Shown one piece after another: positions 47,522 through 60,197 of a stretch of 64,000 nucleotides of DNA. Both the position numbers and the translations under genes were made by a program. The notes under the pieces were generated by a model. That model worked only from the letters and a program-made list of their open reading frames with translations. It was not told the DNA's origin and searched no databases. Origin of the DNA: a virus (Duplodnaviria > Heunggongvirae > Uroviricota > Caudoviricetes); the IMG/VR virus record IMGVR_UViG_2778260992_000001. One strand, written 5' to 3'. Position 1 is the stretch's first letter; each line of letters starts with the position of its first letter.

Positions 47522-47911
47522 ATGGGCTTCCCTTCTCCTGCGGCGGATTATGCTGAGAGCCGTATTTCTCTTGATCAGCAGATAATTAGACATCCTTCAG
47601 CGACCTACTTCATGAGGGCAGCTGATAGTCATCATCGTGAGGGAATATTACAGGGTGCATTGCTGGTGGTCGATTCCTCACTTACCCCGGTTGATGGTTC
47701 TCTGCTTGTATGCGCTCTGGATGGGGAATATCGCGTAAAAAGATACCGGAAGTATCCACGTCAGCATCTGGAGGATTTAAGAACCGGTAAGAAGGAAGCA
47801 TTGCCAAAGGATGACGATGGATGCACGGGCAGCAATGCCGTGTTTGGTGTGATCACTCACATTATCAACGACGCAAGAAGTGGCGAGTTTGATGATTGTC
47901 CCGTGATGTAG
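47522..47911 (+). CDS. UmuD-prime-like SOS mutagenesis protein (P1 HumD-like; S24 LexA-type fold)
   Basis: GFPSPAADYAESRI ... HPSATYF ... VDGEYRVKR aligns with the UmuD C-terminal domain but lacks the N-terminal arm; 129 aa; LexA box upstream; no umuC partner adjacent. Confidence 0.7.
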   Translation: MGFPSPAADYAESRISLDQQIIRHPSATYFMRAADSHHREGILQGALLVVDSSLTPVDGSLLVCALDGEYRVKRYRKYPRQHLEDLRTGKKEALPKDDDGCTGSNAVFGVITHIINDARSGEFDDCPVM

Positions 47912-47923
47912 GAGAACTGATTA

Positions 47924-47948
47924 GGCGGTGCAATGCACCGCCTTTTTA
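47924..47948 (+). terminator. rho-independent terminator after umuD-like gene
   Basis: GGCGGTGC-aat-GCACCGCC followed by TTTTT. Confidence 0.65.
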
Positions 47949-49049
47949 TCACACTGCGCGGAATGCGATTTCGCCAGGTATTACTTCACCTTGCCAATAC
48001 ATTTGGGCAGCAACGCGATCTGCGAGGTCACGATAAATAGCCGTAAATTCGCTATCTGGACGACTAATAACGGTTGGTGTTCCGTTATCCAGATCTTCAC
48101 GAAGAGAGATATGAAGTGGCATTTGGCCTAACAACTGCGTGTTGTATTTCTCGGCCAGTTTCTGTGCGCCACCGGTGCCAAAAATTGGCTCGTGATGACC
48201 GCAGTTACTGCAAATATGCACACTCATGTTTTCAACGATACCCAGTACCGGCACTTCGACTTTTTCGAACATCACAATGCCTTTCTTCGCATCGATCAGC
48301 GCGATGTCTTGCGGCGTAGTTACCACAACCGCACCAGTTACAGGAATGTTCTGCGCCAGCGTCAACTGAATATCACCAGTGCCCGGCGGCATATCGAGAA
48401 CGAGATAGTCCAGATCAGGCCACAGTGTTTCCTGCAACATCTGCATCAGCGCCTTGCTGGCCATCGGTCCACGCCACACCATTGCATTGTCGTCGGTGAC
48501 CAGATAACCAATAGAGTTGGTTGCCAGGCCATGAGACATGATAGGTGCCATGTGAGTACCGTCAGGTGAGGTTGGACGTTGGTTTTCCGAGCCCAGCATG
48601 GTTGGAATTGATGGACCATAGATATCGGCATCCAAAATACCAACTTTCGCACCTTCAGCAGCCAACGCCAGTGCCAGGTTTACCGCCGTGGAGGATTTAC
48701 CCACGCCGCCCTTGCCTGAGCTGACGGCGATAATGTTCTTCACGCCATTAATGCCTGGTTGGTTTTTGACGCGCTTAAGCGTGGCAATGTTGTACGACAG
48801 CTTCCAGTCAATAGCCTTTGCGCCAGTGATACGGAGCAGATCACCACTACATTGCTCTTTCAGGTCTTCAAAAGGCTTATTCCACACGAAAGGCATGATT
48901 AGTTCGACATGCAGTGTGTCATCCATCAACGCAACATGGTGTAACGCTTTAAGCGTAGTCAGGTTGTGTTTCAGGGTTGGGTGCTGAAAATTAGCCAGCG
49001 TACCGGCTACCATTGCTCTCAGGGCATCCGGCGATTTGGACTCGCTCAT
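47949..49049 (-). CDS. mrp: iron-sulfur cluster carrier ATPase Mrp/ApbC (host-type)
   Basis: Near-identical to enterobacterial Mrp over its length as remembered (ALRAMVAGTLANFQHPTLKHNL ... SSGKGGVGKSS ... CSNCGHHEPIFG). Confidence 0.9.
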   Translation of the reverse strand: MSESKSPDALRAMVAGTLANFQHPTLKHNLTTLKALHHVALMDDTLHVELIMPFVWNKPFEDLKEQCSGDLLRITGAKAIDWKLSYNIATLKRVKNQPGINGVKNIIAVSSGKGGVGKSSTAVNLALALAAEGAKVGILDADIYGPSIPTMLGSENQRPTSPDGTHMAPIMSHGLATNSIGYLVTDDNAMVWRGPMASKALMQMLQETLWPDLDYLVLDMPPGTGDIQLTLAQNIPVTGAVVVTTPQDIALIDAKKGIVMFEKVEVPVLGIVENMSVHICSNCGHHEPIFGTGGAQKLAEKYNTQLLGQMPLHISLREDLDNGTPTVISRPDSEFTAIYRDLADRVAAQMYWQGEVIPGEIAFRAV

Positions 49050-49206
49050 CCCGTCTCCTTTATTTTAATTTGCGCAATTGTCGCCTTGTAGTGTACTCCA
49101 GCTACGACATTTAATCATTTATGAGAAATGCTGTTATCACATGGCAGACATAAGGCCATTTTGTTACTATCAAGCCCCTTTTCACTACAAAGAAGTAATG
49201 CCTACT

Positions 49207-51240
49207 ATGACCCAAGTCGCGAAGAAAATTCTGGTGACGTGCGCGCTGCCGTACGCTAACGGCTCAATCCACCTCGGCCATATGCTGGAGCACATCCAGG
49301 CTGATGTCTGGGTTCGTTACCAGCGAATGCGCGGCCACGAGGTTAATTTCATCTGTGCCGACGATGCCCACGGTACGCCGATCATGCTGAAAGCACAGCA
49401 GCTTGGTATCACACCGGAACAGATGATTGGCGAAATGAGTCAGGAACACCAGACTGATTTTGCAGGCTTTAACATCAGCTATGACAACTATCACTCGACG
49501 CACAGCGAAGAGAACCGTCAGTTGTCCGAGCTTATCTATACTCGCCTGAAAGAGAACGGTTTTATTAAAAACCGCACCATCTCTCAGCTGTACGATCCGG
49601 AAAAAGGCATGTTCCTGCCGGACCGTTTTGTGAAAGGCACCTGCCCGAAATGTAAAGCACCGGATCAATACGGCGATAACTGTGAAGTCTGCGGCGCTAC
49701 TTACAGCCCGACTGAACTGATCGAGCCGAAATCGGTAGTTTCTGGTGCTACGCCGGTAATGCGTGATTCCGAACACTTCTTCTTTGATCTGCCTTCTTTC
49801 AGCGAAATGTTGCAGGCATGGACCCGCAGCGGTGCGTTGCAGGAGCAGGTGGCAAACAAAATGCAGGAGTGGTTTGAATCTGGCCTGCAACAGTGGGATA
49901 TCTCCCGCGATGCGCCGTACTTCGGTTTTGAAATTCCGAACGCACCGGGCAAATATTTCTACGTCTGGCTGGACGCGCCGATTGGCTACATGGGTTCCTT
50001 CAAGAATCTGTGCGACAAACGCGGCGACACTACCAGCTTCGACGAATACTGGAAGAAAGACTCCACCGCCGAGCTGTACCACTTCATCGGTAAAGATATC
50101 GTTTACTTCCACAGCCTGTTCTGGCCTGCCATGCTGGAAGGCAGCAATTTCCGCAAGCCGACCAACCTGTTTGTTCATGGCTATGTGACGGTGAACGGTG
50201 CGAAGATGTCCAAGTCTCGCGGCACCTTTATTAAAGCCAGCACCTGGCTGAATCATTTTGACGCTGACAGCCTGCGTTACTACTACACTGCGAAACTCTC
50301 TTCGCGCATTGATGATATCGATCTCAACCTGGAGGATTTCGTTCAGCGCGTGAATGCCGATATCGTGAACAAAGTGGTTAACCTGGCCTCCCGTAATGCA
50401 GGCTTTATCAACAAGCGTTTTGACGGCGTGCTGGCAAGCGAACTGGCTGACCCGCAACTGTACAAAACCTTTACTGATGCTGCTGAAGTGATTGGTGAAG
50501 CATGGGAAAGCCGCGAATTTGGTAAAGCGATTCGTGAAATCATGGCGCTGGCTGATCTGGCTAACCGCTATGTCGATGAACAGGCTCCGTGGGTGGTGGC
50601 GAAGCAGGAAGGGCGCGATGCCGATCTGCAGGCGATTTGCTCTATGGGCATTAACCTGTTCCGCGTGCTGATGACGTACCTGAAACCGGTACTGCCGAAA
50701 CTGACTGAACGTGCAGAAGCATTCCTGAATACAGAACTGACCTGGGATGGTATCCAGCAACCGCTGCTGGGCCATAAAGTGAATCCGTTCAAGGCACTGT
50801 ATAACCGCATCGACATGAAGCAGGTTGAAGCACTGGTGGAAGCATCCAAAGAGGAAGTAAAAGCCGCTGCCGCGCCAGTAACTGGCCCACTGGCAGATGA
50901 TCCGATTCAGGAAACCATCACCTTTGACGACTTCGCCAAAGTTGACCTGCGCGTGGCTCTGATTGAAAACGCGGAGTTTGTCGAAGGTTCTGACAAACTG
51001 CTTCGCCTGACGCTGGATCTCGGTGGCGAAAAACGTAATGTCTTCTCCGGCATTCGTTCCGCTTATCCAGATCCACAGGCACTGATTGGTCGTCACACCA
51101 TTATGGTGGCCAACCTGGCTCCGCGTAAAATGCGCTTCGGTATCTCCGAAGGCATGGTGATGGCTGCTGGCCCCGGCGGGAAAGATATCTTCCTGTTAAG
51201 CCCGGATGCTGGTGCTAAACCAGGCCACCAGGTTAAGTAA
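49207..51240 (+). CDS. metG: methionyl-tRNA synthetase (host-type)
   Basis: [26 protein letters not shown] (HIGH) and KMSKS motifs; essentially the E. coli-type MetG sequence; start set at MTQVAKK, 43 codons inside the track ORF. Confidence 0.95.
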
Positions 51241-51323
51241 TTAAGCAACCATTCTTCACAATGCCCGGCAATACGCTGGGCATTTTCATTTAGACACAAT
51301 CCCTTCTGATTTACACATACCCT

Positions 51324-51338
51324 AAAACAATTTGTTTT
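51324..51338. promoter_or_regulatory. class-1 palindromic element AAAACAATTTGTTTT (first of a tandem pair)
   Basis: First element-type motif after the metG stop; second copy GAAAACAACTTGTTTT at about 51374-51389. Confidence 0.5.
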
Positions 51339-51401
51339 CTGCCTTTTGTTGATTGAGATAATAAACCACATAAGAAAACAACTTGTTTTGGAGTGGTTTA
51401 A

Positions 51402-51701
51402 ATGTTGAACATTACCCAAGCCTACCAGGTGGCATTGATCAGCTCATCTCATACATCAGAGGAAGATGCTCGCCGATTCATGATCGCAAGCAATGAGCTG
51501 GATTGGGTTTCACAAATTGAGTACGGTTGCATTGTCCACGCCGGGTTACAGGATGATGTCTGGAAAGACAACTTGCGTCGATATGGTATATCCGAGGGCG
51601 CGATTTCGAACATTCAGAAGGTACTTGATGTAGGCTTCGACTCTGTACATTTCGATTGTGGCGCACCGGTCGTTGAAGGGCTTGAGTGCTGGCAATGGTA
51701 A
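51402..51701 (+). CDS. hypothetical protein
   Basis: 99-aa ORF with class-1 elements upstream. Confidence 0.5.
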   Translation: MLNITQAYQVALISSSHTSEEDARRFMIASNELDWVSQIEYGCIVHAGLQDDVWKDNLRRYGISEGAISNIQKVLDVGFDSVHFDCGAPVVEGLECWQW

Positions 51702-51737
51702 TCCGGCAATCGCTTCATACTAGATAACGGAGAATTT

Positions 51738-51923
51738 ATGCTTAAAGAAGACTCATATCTACTAAAGGCGCTTGAAATGCGTGGCGTTGAACCTACAGTG
51801 AAAAACGCCCACGATATCTACCTTCAGTTTTCACCGGAGCTGAAACGGCTCATAAATCAATACGGGGTTAATGACTCAAGTGTTAAAGCGATGATAGATG
51901 ATGAATTAGACCATCTCATCTAA
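51738..51923 (+). CDS. hypothetical small protein
   Basis: 61-aa ORF. Confidence 0.4.
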   Translation: MLKEDSYLLKALEMRGVEPTVKNAHDIYLQFSPELKRLINQYGVNDSSVKAMIDDELDHLI

Positions 51924-52075
51924 TCGTTATCCTATGATAATGGTTTCACTTTGAGATTGTCATTTTTCATAGCCAAAGCTGATGTTTGTGGAAGGTGGAT
52001 TGATAAACGGATGCGTATTTAGGTTATACAAGTGAGAAAATTGATAATATATAAAAGCGATTTTTATGTGATGGA

Positions 52076-52645
52076 ATGGATGTGATGGAAACCCAGAACC
52101 AACAAACAAAACCTCTGAATAACATTTATGCGTGGATTCTAGCGTTCATGCCTTTCTTCTTTGGAGTATTGCCGGAAGAGTATACCAATTACGCTATTAT
52201 AATTGGGGGTGTAACTACCATCGGTTTGTTAGTAGCTGACAGAATGGCTCTATCGGAGTCTGGCTGTGAACCACCTTCAATTCTATGGGGGGTATTCCTC
52301 CTGCCTGTCTATCTCTGGAAGCGCGCGACTATTACAAAAGGCAGCAGAGTGCCATTTATCATAATCGTTGCGTCGCTGGCTTGGATTATCTTCATCGGCA
52401 TCCCACACAAGGACGAGGTTGCTCTTGAAGAAGCAGCCTGCCCTCTCGTGACAACTATTCTGAAAGAGAATAACGGTTCGACTGCACCAAAATGTATGAA
52501 GGTGACAATAGAGGACAAGGTGACGGATAAGTTCTATAGAGCAACGGCTACACTAGACAATGGTAATGACATTAACATTACTCTGGAACTTACCGGTGAC
52601 AGGAACTTCTACGTCCGTGTTCCAAATGTTTATCTGAACAACTAA
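52076..52645 (+). CDS. hypothetical membrane protein
   Basis: 189 aa; N-terminal hydrophobic helices, soluble C-terminal domain. Confidence 0.5.
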   Translation: MDVMETQNQQTKPLNNIYAWILAFMPFFFGVLPEEYTNYAIIIGGVTTIGLLVADRMALSESGCEPPSILWGVFLLPVYLWKRATITKGSRVPFIIIVASLAWIIFIGIPHKDEVALEEAACPLVTTILKENNGSTAPKCMKVTIEDKVTDKFYRATATLDNGNDINITLELTGDRNFYVRVPNVYLNN

Positions 52646-52759
52646 CGGTTGCAACTTATTGATAATGGCGGTCACAATTTGATTCTTTTCTATAAGAATC
52701 CGTTGATCGCCACTACTCCCCTTCCATACCTGCAATCATACCCTTAAATATCAATAGGT

Positions 52760-53560
52760 TATGGTTGTTTATACAAATAAGAAAACAACTAAATAACAGA
52801 TCAACGAAACGTCAACGCTTTCACCCGATTTGGTCTAAAAAATTGACGTTTTCACACATCACTTCTTATACCCGTAACTCTACGCAGCAGACAGCGCCAC
52901 AGCGTCCAATTTTCACCACAGACGACCCAACACACTACCAACAAAAACACACGCTCAAAATCGCTCCCGTTGCGTTACGCAACCATATAAACAACTTATT
53001 TTCAGGCATAACAAAACAACTAAATAACACACATGCCATTCCCAAAAACAACCAACCTCTTTATGGCAGGCTACCGAAAAGACCCACCTCTTCTCCCCAG
53101 GCTACCGGACAACCAACCTAACTTTCACAGGCAATCCGAAAACATTCATACGCGCGATACCCACGACACGCCATTACCCAAACAGCGAAGAAATACCAGA
53201 CTCACTGAAACCCCAACGAAGCCTGTTACCGCAAGGATTCTCTCAATCCCAAAAGACACGAAACAGAACAATCACGGGAAACGCCATTACCCAATACACG
53301 AATAACTACAAAAGCCTTTCAGGCACTCCAGACAAACAACTCAAACACAATAACGAAAGCAATCGCCCACCTGCCATTACTCCATACACGGAGAAGAACA
53401 ATCACCAAAACGACGAGAACACCCCATAGAAGAACCACCGCAAAACGAACGAAACCACATACACCGACAGAGAAAACAACACACCCAATTCACCAACAGA
53501 AATAGTCGCCGTATAGGACATTCTGGAAGGAGTGAGCATTAACGCCTATAGAGAGGTTGA
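52760..53560 (+). repeat. strongly strand-asymmetric A+C-rich, G/T-poor tract with degenerate internal repeats (candidate ncRNA or Rho-loading region)
   Basis: By eye about three-quarters or more A+C on the + strand over about 0.75 kb; repeated GCCATTACCCAA and AAAACAACTAAATAACA units; putative -35 TTGACG (52843-52848) and -10-like at 52866-52871; track ORFs here are low-complexity. Confidence 0.5.
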
Positions 53561-53618
53561 GACAGATAAAACACAACATGTATAGCGAAGAAGCCAGGTA
53601 TGTATAAGTGGGGATGGA

Positions 53619-53645
53619 AGGAGGGGTGTCGCCTCCTTTTTCGTA
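53619..53645 (+). terminator. rho-independent terminator closing the A+C-rich tract
   Basis: AGGAGG-ggtgtcg-CCTCCT followed by TTTTCGTATTT. Confidence 0.6.
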
Positions 53646-53699
53646 TTTATTCAACTCCTGATTTTATCCCCCGTAACACCCCTACGGTCAGCCTTCGGT

Positions 53700-53840
53700 C
53701 CATACAGGGGAAAGGCTGCATCCCGCTACAGAAACGGCTGGGTTGCCTTTGGGAACGGCTGGAGGTTTTCAGGGAAACGGTCGAGTTGCCTGTGTGGATT
53801 TCGGGAAAAGGCTCGATGCCGGTTCAGGAACGGTGGCGTA
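53700..53840. repeat. cluster of GRAAACGGC repeats (copy 1)
   Basis: GGGAAAGGCTG, AGAAACGGCTGG, GGGAACGGCTGG, GGGAAACGGTCG, GGGAAAAGGCTCG, GGAACGGTGG within about 140 bp. Confidence 0.55.
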
Positions 53841-54167
53841 CCGGTATAGCGAGAGGGAGAGTTGCGGCTACCCACCTGTAATGTGCGGGAAGAAGAGAGG
53901 CGCTCACGTAGGCGGACTTGCTTACCGCTGGATTCCCTCTGAATGCCCAGCTACAGCGTAATTGTGCCAGACAGCCAACGGGTCACAATCGATTTCAGTA
54001 GGTTTTTGGGGAGAGGATTACTCTGCCACCAGCCACTTTCGGCCACTAAATCAGAATAATGTAAAAAGTGTACTCGGTACTGAACCTGAAAACTCACTGC
54101 CAAAACCACATTCACCGGAACAAAATCCTTTTTCGCCTGTGCGTTATTGCGATAATAACACCATCAA

Positions 54168-54182
54168 GAAAACATGTTGTTT
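54168..54182. promoter_or_regulatory. class-1 element GAAAACATGTTGTTT with extended -10-like TGCGATAAT upstream
   Basis: CGATAAT-ACACCA-CAAGAAAACA block conserved with the 56.3 and 56.8 kb copies. Confidence 0.5.
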
Positions 54183-54194
54183 AAGGATTGCTTT

Positions 54195-54524
54195 ATGTTT
54201 ACAAATATCGACATCAACCAAATCAAGAAATTAACTCAAAAAGAGTTTGATCAGTTTTATGAGTTAGAAGGTTGGTCTTCCACTCTGATCAATTCAAGAT
54301 GGGTGCTGGAACTGATGACTCGTGATGACGCACCTGCTTTGATGATCAGCGACCTGGGTGAAGATGCTGACTTTATGGATATGAGCGAATTTTGTGTGGA
54401 CACATACAACCGCAGCCAGAAGTACTACTTCACATGCGATAGCGAAAATGACGTGATTTCTAAGGTCTATCTTCACCTCGTCCAGCATTGGGACGTTCAG
54501 GAGTTTCTTGAAGTATTCGAGTAA
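54195..54524 (+). CDS. hypothetical small acidic protein
   Basis: 109 aa, Asp/Glu-rich; start at ATG after AAGGA RBS. Confidence 0.5.
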   Translation: MFTNIDINQIKKLTQKEFDQFYELEGWSSTLINSRWVLELMTRDDAPALMISDLGEDADFMDMSEFCVDTYNRSQKYYFTCDSENDVISKVYLHLVQHWDVQEFLEVFE

Positions 54525-54650
54525 CCCCAACCAAAGCCAGCATTGCTGGCTTAATTTCTCTATAGCCGCAGGGAAGAACCTGCATATAGCTCATGCACCT
54601 GATCAATATGCTTTGTAGCCGTTTTCTTACTGGTATTATTTACGCCATTG

Positions 54651-54668
54651 AGAAAACAAGTTGTTTAC
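54651..54668. promoter_or_regulatory. class-1 palindromic element GAAAACAAGTTGTTTAC
   Basis: Upstream of the 54678 start. Confidence 0.5.
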
Positions 54669-54677
54669 GGAGTTGTG

Positions 54678-54989
54678 ATGAAAAAATCATTGGTTCTTGG
54701 TCTGGACAAAGACCAGAAGAGAAAAGAGAAGCCTGCGCTGGTTGCTCAATTAACTTTGCTGGACATCGTTGCCAATGGAACCTCTATTCGTCTGTTCCGT
54801 GAAACAGCGGTGTCTTTCGATAAAAACACCTTTACTCGTTATGTAATGAATGTTCGTCGCCAGCGTGGAAAAGGCTGGGTGGCATTTCAAAGAATGTGGC
54901 CGGAACATCAGCTCGAACTGGCTTTGATGGAAGTTAACCGCGTGGCCCAGCAAGAGATTCAGAGAGCATCAGTGATGGCAATAGCCTGA
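54678..54989 (+). CDS. hypothetical small basic protein
   Basis: 103 aa; start at ATG after GGAG (track ORF begins at a TTG codon, 54648). Confidence 0.5.
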   Translation: MKKSLVLGLDKDQKRKEKPALVAQLTLLDIVANGTSIRLFRETAVSFDKNTFTRYVMNVRRQRGKGWVAFQRMWPEHQLELALMEVNRVAQQEIQRASVMAIA

Positions 54990-55022
54990 TAATGTGCAAG
55001 TGGTAATTAGTCGACCGTACGA

Positions 55023-55050
55023 CAGCCCCGCCATCCTTACGGGGCTTTTT
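55023..55050 (+). terminator. rho-independent terminator
   Basis: AGCCCCG-ccatccttac-GGGGCT followed by TTTTTT. Confidence 0.65.
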
Positions 55051-55055
55051 TGTAT

Positions 55056-55071
55056 TGTAAGTACATACTTA
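55056..55071. promoter_or_regulatory. class-2 palindrome GTAAGTACATACTTAC
   Basis: Perfect 7-bp arms; between terminator and next gene. Confidence 0.45.
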
Positions 55072-55115
55072 CGATCATAGAATATAAAAATAACCAAAAC
55101 ACTACGGAGAGTGAA

Positions 55116-55511
55116 ATGACCGTTAAACGCGAAAAACTGACAGTTGATGTTTACTATGCCTCTGAAACCGCCGAAGGTAAGAATGTGGCAAAAATCACCG
55201 TTGTTACGTACAACACCGAAACTGGTGCCGAAGTCCAGGCCAGTACGATCGTGCGTAAAGGTGATGCCTCCGGCGGCGAGTACGCGACTCAATACCAGTC
55301 CATTCTCGATGCAACTGACCCGCTGCTGCTGAAAATCGAGAACTACTTCCGCCAGGTTAATGAAGAGGTGTTTGAAACCATGATGAATATGGTTAACACC
55401 GTATTCGCCTCCAGCCTGAATACCAACACTACCTGGATTGGTCAGTACGGCCTGCGCATTACCTCTGGCATTCCTGCCGACACCTTAATCCCTGAAAGCG
55501 TATTCGCTTAA
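55116..55511 (+). CDS. hypothetical protein
   Basis: 131 aa; start at ATG after GGAG RBS. Confidence 0.5.
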   Translation: MTVKREKLTVDVYYASETAEGKNVAKITVVTYNTETGAEVQASTIVRKGDASGGEYATQYQSILDATDPLLLKIENYFRQVNEEVFETMMNMVNTVFASSLNTNTTWIGQYGLRITSGIPADTLIPESVFA

Positions 55512-55520
55512 TCCTCTTTA

Positions 55521-55550
55521 AATGGCGCGTAAACCGCGCCATTTTATTAT
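55521..55550 (+). terminator. rho-independent terminator
   Basis: AATGGCGCG-taaac-CGCGCCATT followed by TTATTAT. Confidence 0.65.
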
Positions 55551-55557
55551 GCCCGAT

Positions 55558-55570
55558 AACAATTTGTTTT
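55558..55570. promoter_or_regulatory. class-1 palindromic element AACAATTTGTTTT
   Basis: Same AACAATTTGTTTTCTGCC block as at 51.3 kb. Confidence 0.5.
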
Positions 55571-55628
55571 CTGCCTTATCTGATTTGTGAAAATGATTTC
55601 ACTGAAGCAACTTAATAAGGAAACCATC

Positions 55629-56003
55629 ATGGGACTTGATATCTATATCGAGACGCAGCCTAAAAACGATCTGAATAACGAGGCATCCAGAAAGCAGGTT
55701 GCTTACTTCCGTAAGTTCAATGCGCTCGTTGGGTGGATGGAGCGCAACGTAGGTGAAGTCGAAAATTGTGAGCTTTTAGAATTAACGATGAATGACATTT
55801 GTTTTCTGAAGGCTCATTTGATGCACATAAACGAAAGTAATTGCGAAGAGTACTTGCCTACCCGGGAAGGTTTTTTCTTCGGCAGTCAGGAGTACGATGA
55901 AGGTTACTGGCATGATGTGGGGCAGTTGAAAGAGCTTGTGGAAGATCTGATTAAGAACCACGACTTTCACAATAACAGACTGACCTTCTGCGCCTGGTGG
56001 TAA
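55629..56003 (+). CDS. hypothetical small acidic protein
   Basis: 124 aa; start at ATG after AAGGA RBS (track ORF begins at GTG 55587). Confidence 0.5.
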   Translation: MGLDIYIETQPKNDLNNEASRKQVAYFRKFNALVGWMERNVGEVENCELLELTMNDICFLKAHLMHINESNCEEYLPTREGFFFGSQEYDEGYWHDVGQLKELVEDLIKNHDFHNNRLTFCAWW

Positions 56004-56154
56004 ATATGGGCGATTTCAAGAAACGCCTGAAGGAAAGAGCCGAGATGGTCAGAAAGCAAAACGCCTCTTCTGTCATCAGATACGCAAGGCAGTTTAGTCG
56101 CAACAACAAATCAGTTGAGGAAAAGATCCTTAGCGTAATCGGGCGATAATTATT

Positions 56155-56178
56155 AAGGCCACCAGCATTGGTGGTCTT
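56155..56178 (+). terminator. hairpin AAGGCCACCAGCATTGGTGGTCTT (repeat copy 1)
   Basis: Near-identical copy at 56625-56648; both followed by AAATGACT. Confidence 0.5.
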
Positions 56179-56304
56179 AAATGACTTTTAATAACCGAAG
56201 GTTAGTTTGAAACCTGGCTATCAACTTCCATAACCTTTCTTGTGTATTCAGCCTGTATTAACTTCTTTTATGCCTTATCTACACTGCGATAATTACACCA
56301 ACAA

Positions 56305-56319
56305 GAAAACAACATGTTT
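56305..56319. promoter_or_regulatory. class-1 element GAAAACAACATGTTT with upstream TGCGATAAT
   Basis: Conserved promoter block. Confidence 0.5.
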
Positions 56320-56338
56320 ACGCAGTTAGGATATGCTC

Positions 56339-56620
56339 ATGACTGATTTCACCATTACCCCTAAAGCACAAAATGTATTTCTTGAATCATGGCTGGACTT
56401 GCCGGAAACAGAACAGCAAGAAATGGATCATGTGGATTATGACGAGCAGGTAAGCACGCGATTCTTCCACTTTGAGGGATGCGTTTACGACATTGTCGAC
56501 TTCATGCGAGATGACCGCTTCCCTGAATGGCACGCAAGCTATCCACTAAACGCCTTTGCCATGCTGATGATCCGTGTGGATGATTCAGGGGATACCATCG
56601 ACATCGGTCTGCTCCACTAA
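56339..56620 (+). CDS. hypothetical small acidic protein
   Basis: 93 aa, strongly acidic (DLPETEQQEMDHVDYDEQ); start at second ATG with better RBS spacing. Confidence 0.5.
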   Translation: MTDFTITPKAQNVFLESWLDLPETEQQEMDHVDYDEQVSTRFFHFEGCVYDIVDFMRDDRFPEWHASYPLNAFAMLMIRVDDSGDTIDIGLLH

Positions 56621-56624
56621 AGGC

Positions 56625-56648
56625 TAAGGCCACCAGCATTGGTGGCCT
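56625..56648 (+). terminator. hairpin AAGGCCACCAGCATTGGTGGCCTT (repeat copy 2)
   Basis: Perfect stem; duplicate of the 56155 hairpin. Confidence 0.5.
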
Positions 56649-56789
56649 TAAATGACTATCTTGTTTCCCGCAGGCTAAAAACACCAACCTCTTACCTCCA
56701 GGCAACCGACAAACCCACCTGTTCCCGTCCGGCTACCGTAACTTTCCACTTTGACGCCTTATTCGTACAACGATAATTAACACCAACAA

Positions 56790-56803
56790 GAAAACAATTT
56801 GTT
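56790..56803. promoter_or_regulatory. class-1 element GAAAACAATTTGTT with upstream CGATAAT
   Basis: Conserved promoter block. Confidence 0.5.
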
Positions 56804-56824
56804 ATTTACGATAAGGAATTAATC

Positions 56825-57307
56825 ATGAATTTTATCGCTACTGTAAACGCACCCGCACATGGCAATATCGCTGTAACGTTCTCTGACATTGAAAAACGAG
56901 TACTTGGTGCATGGCGCGACAATGAGACGGTAGAACTGTCAGCACAAGAAAAATGCATTATTGCACGCGACATCATTGGCAATCGTCGTTACTCGCGGGT
57001 ATTTGAAAAAGCGTATGTGGTAAATTCTGGATTCGGAACGTTCGTCTTTCCGGTGCGCTCCGGGCGATTCTGCCAGTCCAAGCTGATTGAGTTCGCTACG
57101 CAGATTTCTGTCTGGATTAAAACTCAATCGTCGTTCAAATTTTCCGACGATGAAGCAGTATCGCAGGGGATGCGGATCGCCAACAATGCAATTAAATGCA
57201 AAAACATTACGTATACCGCTGGCGTTGATACATGGAAACTGTTTTGCGCTAACTTTATGCTGAATGTATACGCAAGCAACCGCATCCACATCCTTGATGG
57301 CGTGTAA
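56825..57307 (+). CDS. hypothetical protein
   Basis: 160-aa ORF; terminator hairpin GGGCC-agaaac-GGCCC downstream. Confidence 0.5.
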   Translation: MNFIATVNAPAHGNIAVTFSDIEKRVLGAWRDNETVELSAQEKCIIARDIIGNRRYSRVFEKAYVVNSGFGTFVFPVRSGRFCQSKLIEFATQISVWIKTQSSFKFSDDEAVSQGMRIANNAIKCKNITYTAGVDTWKLFCANFMLNVYASNRIHILDGV

Positions 57308-57314
57308 CTGAGAA

Positions 57315-57500
57315 GAGGGCCAGAAACGGCCCTTTCTCTATAGCCACCAGCTGCCGCAGGGAAATTTTCAGAAACGGCGAGGAACGTATTCATGAGCCGA
57401 CGGGAAACGGCCAGGATTTTTTCGGGAAACGGCTGCATTCGCCTTTATGTAGAAAAAACATCGGGAAGCTGGTGGAATCCAACCAGCGGTTGTCGGACAG
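57315..57500. repeat. cluster of GRAAACGGC repeats (copy 2)
   Basis: CAGAAACGGCCC, CAGAAACGGCGAGG, GGGAAACGGCCAGG, GGGAAACGGCTGC, GGGAAGCTGG; TTCTCTATAGCC also shared with the 54.55 kb region. Confidence 0.55.
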
Positions 57501-57894
57501 GTGAGCGGGGAAAATTATGATGACTTTCGTCACCTGAGACATCCAGATTTCTTTCGTAGCATAATCACATACGTGATTAAGTGGTGTGATTATGTGAAAA
57601 ATCACGCGCACATAATACGCGAGCGGATACAGAACAAAACAAAATGCCGATCCGCACCGACAAATAAACGCGGATCACATAGCAAGACTAAAAGCCAATG
57701 ATTAACCATACTCTATAGCGCAATATAACGCGTTTTAAGCGCGTTAATGTGTTAAGTAATGGGTATGTACTGGCAAGGATATAAAAGCGCGTCTATGGCG
57801 TTATTTTGGTGCTTATTTTTATGTTGTTGGAGTGAGTTAAAGACAATAAAAAACGCGCCATTGATGGCGCGTTATTGTGGAAGTATTGGAAACG

Positions 57895-57930
57895 AAAAAA
57901 GCGCCCATAGTGGGCGCTCGATTTTATTTA
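57895..57930 (-). terminator. terminator hairpin GCGCCCATAGTGGGCGC flanked by A- and T-tracts
   Basis: Perfect 7-bp stem; A6 upstream and T-rich downstream on + strand, so it can act for the minus-strand cassette; duplicate at 58397-58413; related ACGCGCCATTGATGGCGCGT hairpin at 57851-57872. Confidence 0.55.
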
Positions 57931-58154
57931 TGTAAACTGATTTCAAATCCCATTTCTACAAACGCTTTCAGCATTAAAAATATATCAGCGTCGTTCACGT
58001 CTGCTTTTTTTCGCTCCTGGTCGCTCAATAAGTCAATTTTGCGCGTCGTTTCATCTATAAGCTCGACTGCGCGCCCAGCGTAACCAGCGATCCCAGCGAT
58101 GCGATTAACATAATATTCGTTATGGACGTTAACGCCAGCGATAAGAACAAACAT
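57924..58154 (-). CDS. hypothetical small protein (cassette gene 3)
   Basis: 76-aa ORF, last gene of a minus-strand three-gene cassette. Confidence 0.4.
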   Translation of the reverse strand: MFVLIAGVNVHNEYYVNRIAGIAGYAGRAVELIDETTRKIDLLSDQERKKADVNDADIFLMLKAFVEMGFEISLHK

Positions 58155-58174
58155 GATTAAGCTCCTTAAAAAAA

Positions 58175-58378
58175 TTAAATAGAATTTTGAAGTTTTCCAA
58201 TTAATGCGCTTAAACGTAAGTATTCACGTTTGCGCTTGCAATCTCGCTTGCTGTTAAGCAAATCAGAAAACGTAAAATTTAATTGGTCGCGTTGCGCGAT
58301 TAAATCATCGATTAATTCTAGTTTATAAGCGCGATACTTTGCGCGATATTCCGCGCGGATCTTGTCATAGCTGACCAT
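58175..58378 (-). CDS. hypothetical small basic coiled-coil protein (cassette gene 2)
   Basis: 67 aa from MVSYDK with AAGGAG RBS; Lys/Arg-rich; track extension runs into the hairpin and is rejected. Confidence 0.4.
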   Translation of the reverse strand: MVSYDKIRAEYRAKYRAYKLELIDDLIAQRDQLNFTFSDLLNSKRDCKRKREYLRLSALIGKLQNSI

Positions 58379-59672: not shown

Positions 59673-60197
59673 TCAAAAAGGCAAAATTCGTTCAACCCAA
59701 TCGAACAAAACAACTATTTTTCTACCGTTCTCGACACGTAGTGTAACCTGACAAGCATCTGCGCCTGCTGACACCCCCTCAATTTCACGGCCATCCGCCA
59801 TGTACACCCTTATAGATTTGTTTGCTTTGTAGGCTTGGTTGCAAATTGCAAAAAAATCGCGGCGTGATGGCCGATTATCGACATAATCAGGGTGAACTGT
59901 TAGTCGACCTTTGAAATCGTGAGCGATACTGTCAACCACACCTGATTCAATTGTACTAATGCGTTCAAGTGGGAGCCTTATACGATTTTCTTTGTCAAAA
60001 GGGGCTGGGCAAAGGTCAACTTTGTTACGAGATGGCATGAGGCCATAAACGTACATGCAAAACGCCTGGCCATCTTCGAGAGTGACCCTTACAGGAATTT
60101 GTTCTCTGCGCCAGAACATCAGTAGTTTTTCAACGTTAGTGTAATCTCGCGGCCAGAGTTCAGCTTGGATACCGTAGGTAATATCTTTGGTTGTCAT
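59673..60197 (-). CDS. hypothetical protein (weak tandem Rof/YaeO-like resemblance)
   Basis: Start set at MTTKDITYG to avoid overlap with upstream lipoprotein gene; resemblance is weak. Confidence 0.4.
   Translation of the reverse strand: MTTKDITYGIQAELWPRDYTNVEKLLMFWRREQIPVRVTLEDGQAFCMYVYGLMPSRNKVDLCPAPFDKENRIRLPLERISTIESGVVDSIAHDFKGRLTVHPDYVDNRPSRRDFFAICNQAYKANKSIRVYMADGREIEGVSAGADACQVTLRVENGRKIVVLFDWVERILPF

Follow-up and report, generated by a model that had tools for sequence, protein, structure and literature searches.

A probably co-regulated and recombination-prone array of small gene cassettes in an SSU5-family phage-plasmid

The window analysed in this study, 64,000 nucleotides of a Caudoviricetes virus record (IMGVR_UViG_2778260992_000001), belongs to a phage-plasmid of the SSU5 family, which includes pHCM2, pMT1 and the Escherichia coli phage Cyrano. 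At positions 51300-57500 the window carries an array of small genes, which on the best-supported reading of the sequence is, on balance, a co-regulated and recombination-prone array of cassettes with mixed functions. Taken as a whole, this explanation would probably make the array the plastic far end of the long rightward replication and nucleotide-metabolism block of the phage-plasmid. The array was composed of ten plus-strand open reading frames (ORFs; o1 to o10) of 47-186 amino acids (aa) in approximately seven transcription units, located between an apbC-metG pair and a convergent minus-strand block. An original prediction, based on the letters of the window, had described at least eight short, mostly acidic ORFs as a candidate host-takeover or anti-defence region. 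The number of ORFs was borne out, and so was the modular organisation of individually promoted, terminator-separated genes, which was recovered from repeats, motif sites and hairpins.

Six of the units shared a promoter module in which an extended -10 box, TGnGATAAT, is followed by a 17-bp near-palindrome, GAAAACAAnTTGTTTAA, just 5' of the ribosome-binding site. Some units had a second, inverted copy of this 17-mer 51 bp upstream, over the -35 region. With up to three mismatches allowed, the 17-mer (GAAAACAAnTTGTTTTC) was found at 16 sites in the window compared with 0.29 expected, and a shorter version gave 27 matches compared with 3.5 expected. Half of the 16 sites (8/16) were inside the 6.2-kb array region, which is 10% of the window length, and 14 of the 16 were positioned 6-62 nt upstream of a plus-strand start codon. 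Within the array, sites were present 5' of o1, o4, o5, o7, o9 and o10, plus one in a non-coding gap. No 17-mer preceded o2, o3, o6 or o8. The o2 gene begins 36 nt after o1 and o8 begins 2 nt after the o7 stop codon, and o1-o2 and o7-o8 are predicted to be co-transcribed pairs; o3 and o6 have ordinary sigma-70-like promoters. The class-1 promoter motif of the original prediction was therefore real, but with six promoter modules and six terminators (-11 to -18 kcal/mol) for ten ORFs, the claim that each ORF has its own promoter and its own hairpin terminator was overstated.

The flanks of the motif were conserved in an alignment of 65 copies from six elements of five genera. The order of the module was a terminator hairpin, an optional inverted 17-mer running into the TTGTTTTCTGCC -35 region, 13 nt, TGnGATAAT, approximately 12 nt (ACACCAACAA), GAAAACAAnTTGTTTAA, a Shine-Dalgarno sequence and ATG, and the TGn of the extended -10 was present in five of the six array modules. 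In full modules of the window, SSU5, pHCM2, pMS-37c, pJN2-26 and pMT1, the paired 17-mers were always spaced by 51 bp, and the motif was kept in Salmonella, Klebsiella, Enterobacter and Yersinia relatives. The upstream site class, TTAAACAAnTTGTTTTC, is the exact reverse complement of the downstream class. The 17-mer is slightly asymmetric, with the better half always towards the core promoter, and its use in both orientations points to a dimer that would recognise double-stranded DNA. The forward copy is located at approximately +5 to +21 relative to the predicted transcription start and the upstream copy covers the -35 region. Both are classical repressor positions, which suggests that the 17-mer is an operator. 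The same 17-mer was also found 5' of a CobT-like gene (2602), a 141-aa gene (16065), an NrdB-like gene (27517), a TerB-family gene (37730), a 189-aa gene (38453) and an HD hydrolase gene (43031), so that the control of the array would be common with that of genes on the replication side.

The full module of o1 was at 51323-51390, with the inverted 17-mer at 51323-51339 over the -35 region, the extended -10 TGAGATAAT at 51354-51362 and the forward 17-mer at 51374-51390. The modules of o4 (54148-54184) and o9 (56285-56321) both had TGCGATAAT followed by the forward 17-mer, and the o5 module (54631-54668), which has TGGTATTAT and then the forward 17-mer, was kept in SSU5, pHCM2, pMS-37c and pJN2-26. 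In the o7-o8 module (55555-55594) an inverted 17-mer over the -35 region is followed by TGTGAAAAT, and the o10 module (56751-56806) has a TTGACG -35 box, GATAAT and a forward 17-mer. The sigma-70-like promoters were a box TGATAATAT at 52042-52050 for o3 and TTGTAA-17-TAGAAT at 55055-55083 for o6. All of these are on the plus strand, as are the terminators.

Hairpins of -11 to -18 kcal/mol were predicted 3' of metG, o4, o5, o6, o8, o9 and o10, and terminator-like sites were enriched (19 compared with 8.4 ± 3.2 expected). The TGnGATAAT boxes came 20-110 nt after the hairpins, which would form compact terminator-plus-promoter units. The left boundary of the array was the metG hairpin at 51260-51284 (-16.3 kcal/mol, followed by a U-rich tail), and the right boundary was the o10 hairpin at 57310-57338 (-16.5 kcal/mol), which faces the convergent minus-strand genes. 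Between them were the hairpins of o4 (54534-54552, -11.4 kcal/mol), o5 (55024-55046, followed by a run of six U), o6 (55520-55544, -14.7 kcal/mol), o8 (56154-56179) and o9 (56625-56650). The duplication of promoter and terminator modules that had been noted previously was confirmed in the repeat families D1-D4, D8 and D9. In D9 a 33-bp terminator is repeated at 97% identity, with its first copy after o8 and its second after o9.

The presence or absence of the array genes was compared across 11 relatives. Turnover was real but partial, with a conserved core interleaved with accessory cargo (o2, o3, o4, o7 and o8). The core genes o1, o5, o6, o9 and o10 were syntenic in SSU5, pHCM2, Enterobacter pMS-37c and Klebsiella pJN2-26, with amino-acid identities across genera of 45-48% (o1), 63-64% (o5), 36-54% (o6), 77-80% (o9) and 68-82% (o10); o9 and o10 were also retained in Yersinia pestis pMT1. 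The accessory genes, together with metG, were absent from all five of these elements. Ratios of non-synonymous to synonymous substitution rates (dN/dS) of 0.08-0.14 for o9, 0.12-0.20 for o10 and 0.19 for o1 indicated purifying selection, and synonymous sites were saturated for o5 and o6. On balance, o9 and o10 behave as conserved functions of the family and not as arms-race cargo. The region had been called hypervariable, with a comparison of relatives for cassette turnover as the proposed check; such turnover was seen, and the accessory genes come and go to an extent that the region is not conserved and syntenic in all relatives, but half of the genes are core and syntenic across genera.

Comparison of closer relatives located some of these changes. 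The o2-o3 slot holds other genes in Cyrano and PhiR41_1, o2-o3 are missing from pCPE35, and o9 is missing from PhiR41_1 and pEc2-51408. The deletion of o9 in pEc2-51408 is of exactly 471 bp between the two copies of the 33-bp terminator repeat, with the junction inside the repeat at the o9 terminator. In the E. coli plasmid NZ_CP083480.1 (L030 2826-5244, "elppa10"), o4, o5 and o10 were 100% identical to the window, o6 and o9 were Klebsiella-type alleles (36% and 78% identity), o7-o8 were lacking and an extra ORF of 141 nt followed o9. Such a mosaic points to the recent replacement of a block flanked by conserved regulatory units. The indel and replacement junctions examined were only a handful, and the conserved o9-to-m3 segment was carried by 811 plasmids. 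In Enterobacter hormaechei pMS-37c, a gene for a GIY-YIG protein (L020 3545-4381) lies just after the o1 orthologue, in the equivalent region, and its product matched the PADLOC model of UzuA, from the Uzume defence system, over its full length (E 6e-58). This indicates a plastic region that is able to carry defence cargo.

Expression was assessed with published RNA sequencing data for E. coli LF82, which carries Cyrano, grown in lysogeny broth (LB; S1 Table of PMC9928086); Cyrano is a relative with array proteins that share 94-100% identity with their counterparts in the window. The Cyrano orthologues behind 17-mer promoters had a mean log2 expression of 3.25, compared with a floor of 2.32 (n = 6), and the array genes without a 17-mer had a mean of 5.24 (n = 3; Mann-Whitney p = 0.048). 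The orthologues of o1, o4, o5, o7 and o9 were at most approximately 1.2 log2 units above the floor and that of o10 was approximately 2.2 above. The only genes with raised expression in the plasmid state were the o8 orthologue and the gene that fills the o2-o3 slot. These data fit repression in the plasmid state and regulated lytic or early genes. The o8 orthologue was expressed approximately 6-fold over the local background with o7 at the floor, which implies that o8 has either an internal promoter or a stable RNA of its own. A regulon-wide test of co-expression with the LF82 data was dropped because almost all genes of the element were at the detection floor in LB.

Each cassette is bounded by a unit of predicted terminator, optional inverted 17-mer, extended -10, forward 17-mer, Shine-Dalgarno sequence and start codon, and from this a mechanism can be proposed. 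The 17-mer would most likely be the operator at which a dimeric DNA-binding repressor, encoded by the element itself, acts. The array would belong to one element-wide regulon with the CobT-like, NrdB-like, TerB and HD-hydrolase operons, which would be off during plasmid life and jointly switched on after induction or infection. The repeated regulatory units probably also supply the short homologies by which cassettes are lost, gained or replaced.

Several observations weigh against this account. The promoters, terminators and operator are predictions from sequence, and a generic sigma-70 scan found no enrichment (17 sites compared with 16.7 expected), so the promoter argument rests on the conserved module. 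The silence in LB is common to most genes of the element and is hence not specific to the 17-mer, and the expression contrast is small and derives from nine genes. Half of the array genes are conserved and syntenic, and the word plastic covers only part of the array. Among the candidates for a cognate repressor, namely an XRE-type protein (1653-2039), an FljA-like protein (59673-60197) and two ParB-like proteins downstream, none was linked to the 17-mer. The XRE-type protein (128 aa, minus strand) is the orthologue of the lysogeny-expressed "putative repressor" CYRAN_45. Its gene is divergent from a 70-aa gene (together 1653-2503), with GGTAAG/CTTACC repeats in the 250-bp spacer; this pair probably constitutes the immunity switch, with repeats unlike the 17-mer.

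The 17-mer might instead act at the RNA level, as a translational operator in 5' untranslated regions bound by the FljA-family protein, but this was considered very unlikely. The protein, encoded on the minus strand 2.4 kb downstream of the array, is a full-length match to Flag1_repress (PF03614, E 1.5e-84) with a weak Hfq-like match, and it was conserved throughout the relatives examined, pMT1 among them. Proteins of the FljA type act post-transcriptionally, by blocking the translation of fliC mRNA (PMC2652032), and the downstream class of sites does lie 3' of the predicted transcription start and 5' of the ribosome-binding site. However, the two orientations would give two different RNA sequences, the upstream copies are outside the transcript of the gene that they precede, and the possible hairpin, with a short loop, a stem of six pairs at most and a high A-U content, would be weak. 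The 17-mer also recalls the sites of the T4 translational repressor RegA, and RegA was rejected as a candidate, as a RegA sequence matched nothing in the window. A role as activator site, or as a phase-specific ("middle") promoter element through which an element-encoded factor fires promoters with weak -35 regions, is only slightly more probable than a translational operator. The promoters have poor -35 regions, the centre of the upstream copy is near -38, which is the position of a class II activator, and the genes are silent without induction. Against this, the commonest and best-conserved copy is at approximately +5 to +21, which is typical of repressors and unusual for activators, and extended -10 promoters work without a -35 region or an activator.

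The possibility that the cassettes are morons, genes for lysogenic conversion whose expression from the resident plasmid benefits the host, was given the least credence. Morons have their own promoter and terminator and are slotted between conserved genes, and the array resembles them in both respects, as cassettes have a promoter and terminator each and some were inserted between conserved genes. In addition, o3 encodes an apparent membrane protein behind a promoter predicted to be unregulated, and two LF82 genes, the o2-o3 slot gene of Cyrano and the o8 orthologue, were scored as morons in the published study (PMC9928086). Most of the array orthologues were, in contrast to morons, not expressed in the Cyrano plasmid state, with the six 17-mer genes at or near the detection floor, and the control site is common to replication and nucleotide-metabolism genes.

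The reading of the original prediction, an anti-defence or host-takeover island whose acidic products would mostly mimic DNA or otherwise inhibit restriction, CRISPR, BREX and comparable systems, appears unlikely, although it was rated above the three alternatives already described. The genes are small, individually expressed, partly variable and located at the end of an early-type block. In a 2025 survey of the SSU5 group the only anti-defence gene recognised was Rad, in 16-22% of the Escherichia/Shigella elements, with none in Salmonella (bioRxiv 10.1101/2025.09.12.675607), and since recognised genes are nearly absent from the group, unrecognised ones would be expected. Members of DUF5983, the family of o1, are known to follow CbtA toxins in islands of E. 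coli (PMC10790755). The acidity that had been emphasised was present, with an isoelectric point (pI) below 5.3 for seven of the ten products, but it was not distinctive when compared with 35% of the other small ORFs of the window (Fisher p = 0.07), and the fraction of aspartate plus glutamate (D+E) was 0.14 in the array and 0.11 in those ORFs (p = 0.15). Individual D+E values of 0.10-0.22, the highest being those of o9 (0.22) and o4 (0.20), fall short of that of Ocr, which is approximately 0.29. DNA mimics of the Ocr and ArdA kind have a pI of approximately 4 or below and roughly one quarter or more D+E; the pI values of o9 and o4 were 4.1 and 4.2.

None of the array products matched Ocr, ArdA, KlcA, anti-CRISPR or other defence or anti-defence models of Pfam, PADLOC and NCBIfam; the suggestion of Ocr- or ArdA-like DNA mimics was not supported at the sequence level, as neither Pfam model had a match at E ≤0.1 among the ten products. 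The most acidic product, o9, is encoded by a core gene with a dN/dS of approximately 0.1 that is kept even in the degenerate pMT1, unlike arms-race cargo. The sharp motifs of o7 (MGLD, GYFRKxN and GFFFGS) suggest a defined pocket or interface and not a mimic based on charge pattern. The sole positive hints of an anti-defence function come from context, namely the UzuA gene of the Enterobacter relative and the o7 homologues beside ArdA and KlcA described below, but what occupies the region in the Enterobacter relative is a defence gene. As a place for new anti-defence genes the array is a reasonable hypothesis, with thin support.

Among the array products, o7 was the best candidate for counter-defence or establishment, as suggested by guilt by association. 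The gene (55629-56003) encodes 124 aa with a pI of 4.75 and forms an accessory cassette from a family that is broad on mobile elements. It was found in 344 plasmids, of which 196 were from Escherichia and 119 from Klebsiella, with a few from Gram-positive bacteria at approximately 30% identity; none of the 344 carriers was a Salmonella or Yersinia plasmid. Among the approximately 811 related plasmids, it was present in most of those from Escherichia and one third of those from Klebsiella. The family comprised 78 clusters, down to approximately 30% identity, and its invariant motifs were MGLD.Y, GYFRKxN and LPTxEGFFFGSxxYD. The structure model of o7 had a mean predicted local distance difference test score (pLDDT) of 93.7 and a predicted template modelling score (pTM) of 0.84. 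In a Foldseek search with this model no solved structure was matched at E <0.001. The model weakly resembles the DNA mimic DMP12 of Neisseria, with a predicted fold related to that of E. coli YfbM (DUF1877), and it matched ten uncharacterised viral proteins, several of which were from jumbo phages.

The neighbourhoods of eight o7 homologues were examined. In two of them the homologue adjoins ArdA, or KlcA/ArdB plus an ArdC-like protease, in conjugative elements, and three were arrays of small spaced genes. The counter-defence reading of o7 is weakened by the fact that the ArdA/KlcA context was seen in only two of the eight and that three of the eight were replication modules of large lytic phages. 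The gene o8, which travels with o7 in the window, was rejected as a partner of the o7 family, as the small genes downstream of o7 homologues elsewhere were unrelated to o8.

The other products probably have mixed functions. In nine cases out of ten, all but o8, the whole length of the product matched a PHROG family of unknown function, and the sole family assignment with the Pfam, PADLOC and NCBIfam models was the DUF5983 C-terminal domain (PF19419, E 1.3e-11) of the core protein o1 (51402-51701, 99 aa, pI 4.4). The two accessory genes that follow are o2 (51738-51923, 61 aa, pI 4.9), which is co-transcribed with o1 and present in only some E. coli relatives, and o3 (52085-52645, 186 aa), which encodes a predicted membrane protein with a hydrophobic N-terminal half. 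A resemblance of o2 to T7 gp5.9 was rejected (17 bits compared with a cut-off of 24.5, over 17 residues only). The accessory protein o4 (54195-54524, 109 aa, pI 4.2) is an orphan limited to E. coli phage-plasmids, in nine clusters only. Searches of the PDB with the sequences of o4, o5, o6, o7, o9 and o10 gave no credible match, and a multicystatin match of o4 was rejected since no aligned stretch passed alone.

The core genes o5 (54678-54989, 103 aa, pI 10.5), o6 (55116-55511, 131 aa, pI 4.6, with divergent alleles) and o10 (56825-57307, 160 aa, pI 9.2) and the accessory gene o8 (56006-56149, 47 aa, pI 11) complete the array together with o9. The o9 gene (56339-56620, 93 aa, pI 4.1) is core but deleted in some E. 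coli relatives, and at an identity of at least 67% it was confined to SSU5-type elements. A profile search retrieved 83 remote relatives with lengths of 90-100 aa, none of which led to a Pfam family or a PDB entry. The structure model of o9 was of low confidence (pLDDT 68.7, with approximately 40 for the other four models) and was kept out of the fold search.

Between o3 and o4 (52646-54170), in a gap that the original prediction did not mention, there was no credible gene, and the sequence was conserved, repeat-rich and non-coding. The conserved stretch at 52659-53867 is 1.2 kb long, A/C-rich on the plus strand and contains three sets of iteron-like repeats; the composition bin 52001-54000 had a guanine-cytosine (GC) skew of -0.105 and an adenine-thymine (AT) skew of +0.18. 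Its identity to SSU5, pHCM2 and pMS-37c was 67%, compared with nucleotide identities of 59-63% for the neighbouring coding genes, and it was absent from pMT1. Indels between relatives in this stretch had lengths that were not multiples of three. Its elements included a 17-mer with a -10-like TAAATA at 52987-53026, a hairpin at 53616-53642, three 30-nt repeats at 53045-53141, several GCCATTACCCAATACACGGAGAAGAAC-type boxes, G-rich GGGAAA(A/C)GGC boxes at 53700-53850 and a conserved inverted repeat, AAACGTCAA...TTGACGTTT, at approximately 52810-52850. A permissive Rfam search of 51000-58200 gave only a chance-level match to suhB, which was outside the array. This stretch may be a lytic origin or another protein-binding hub.

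Repeats of the same families were found around o10. Two 30-nt repeats, ACCnACCT...CAGGCnACCG (D3), were located at 56677-56742, 5' of the o10 promoter, and belong to the same family as those at 53045-53141. Their position 5' of o10 was kept in SSU5, pHCM2, pMS-37c, pJN2-26 and pMT1. The o10 gene is thus bracketed by two repeat families of the non-coding block, ACCnACCT...CAGGCTACCG upstream and GGGAAACGG-type boxes downstream (57350-57440), which suggests a DNA-binding factor in common.

The closest described analogue of the array is the promoter-early stem-loop (PeSL) cassettes of T4-type phages, which are promoter/terminator units in hyperplastic regions with modular shuffling (PMC2839356, PMC4122927). 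In both systems small composite units of a sigma-70-type promoter and a terminator stem-loop, predicted in the case of the array, are repeated many times and are concentrated among small ORFs of unknown function (non-essential for PeSL). Indels and replacements between close relatives also end in the units, as seen for the o9 deletion and the allele replacement between identical o5 and o10 genes. The array differs in that its host is a temperate siphovirus living as a plasmid and not a virulent T4-like myovirus, and in that its units flank genes of which half are conserved between genera. Moreover, regulation is implied by the conserved operator-like site of 17 bp in its unit, which is often present as two inverted copies with a spacing of 51 bp, whereas PeSL promoters are unregulated strong early promoters.

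Dispersed regulons based on a single operator are known from the C1 operators of phage P1 and the KorB/KorA sites of IncP plasmids. As in these, one short site is present at many promoters, over the -35 or the start, and would join operons to one switch; the sequence of the site is unrelated, and the array regulon is a prediction from its sites. The searchable part of the phage-plasmid literature held no description of the 17-mer motif or of the array. The leading-region islands of conjugative elements (ArdA, KlcA/ArdB, ArdC, PsiB, SSB) also have small, spaced, same-strand genes that act early, and o7 homologues are found inside such islands. However, the SSU5-like element is non-mobilizable, the array is not beside an origin of transfer (oriT) or relaxase, ArdA, KlcA, PsiB and SSB were not found in it, and its promoters are predicted to be ordinary double-stranded extended -10 promoters.

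A more far-reaching possibility, which we regard as doubtful, is that the counter-defence locus so far missing from SSU5-type phage-plasmids, a group of clinical importance, would be this array. In that case o7 would found a widespread inhibitor family with a DMP12/YfbM-like fold, the units would be a temperate counterpart of PeSL that both co-regulates and shuffles genes, and the iteron-rich block might be a coupled lytic origin. If this were true, the o7 family would span phage-plasmids, conjugative leading regions and large lytic phages. The cassette array itself is relevant because the SSU5-like group includes pHCM2 of Salmonella Typhi, pMT1 of Y. pestis and resistance-carrying elements of E. 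coli and Klebsiella, and its regulation was essentially undescribed before. A family-wide operator, if true, would be a handle on the switch from plasmid to lytic growth, and the cassette boundaries would explain how cargo enters, including the Uzume defence gene in one relative. The ten anonymous ORFs have been narrowed to a shortlist, with o7 first, followed by o4 and o9. The PeSL concept would be extended to a temperate element, and current ideas are not overturned.

In the window as a whole, genes for a glutaredoxin, an integrase and the XRE-type repressor candidate precede the long plus-strand replication and nucleotide-metabolism block, which is followed by the small-gene array, the convergent minus-strand block, and ParB-like and packaging genes. 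The array is flanked by phage replication and packaging genes. The region 51300-57500 had 97-99.5% identity to E. coli plasmids of approximately 110 kb and matched the E. coli phages Cyrano, PhiR41_1 and CMS-2020a at 77-85% coverage. Phage SSU5 was also among the matches of the window. Its annotated relatives were SSU5-type phage-plasmids, and it was never found on an E. coli chromosome in a search of chromosomes. The element has neither a relaxase nor an oriT and is non-mobilizable, and its relatives were typed as non-mobilizable in 694 of 723 and 783 of 811 records.

The apbC-metG pair, which adjoins the array on its left side, had approximately 88.5% identity to the chromosomal E. coli locus over window positions 47953-51241. 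The match was found in all of the genomes searched (5,426/5,426), and the similarity ends with the metG stop codon. The segment, which was captured from a host, codes for a complete methionyl-tRNA synthetase and is confined to the E. coli lineage of these phage-plasmids. The plasmid NZ_CP195946.1 of E. coli strain C6 (109,926 bp) was 100% identical to window positions 47900-51260.

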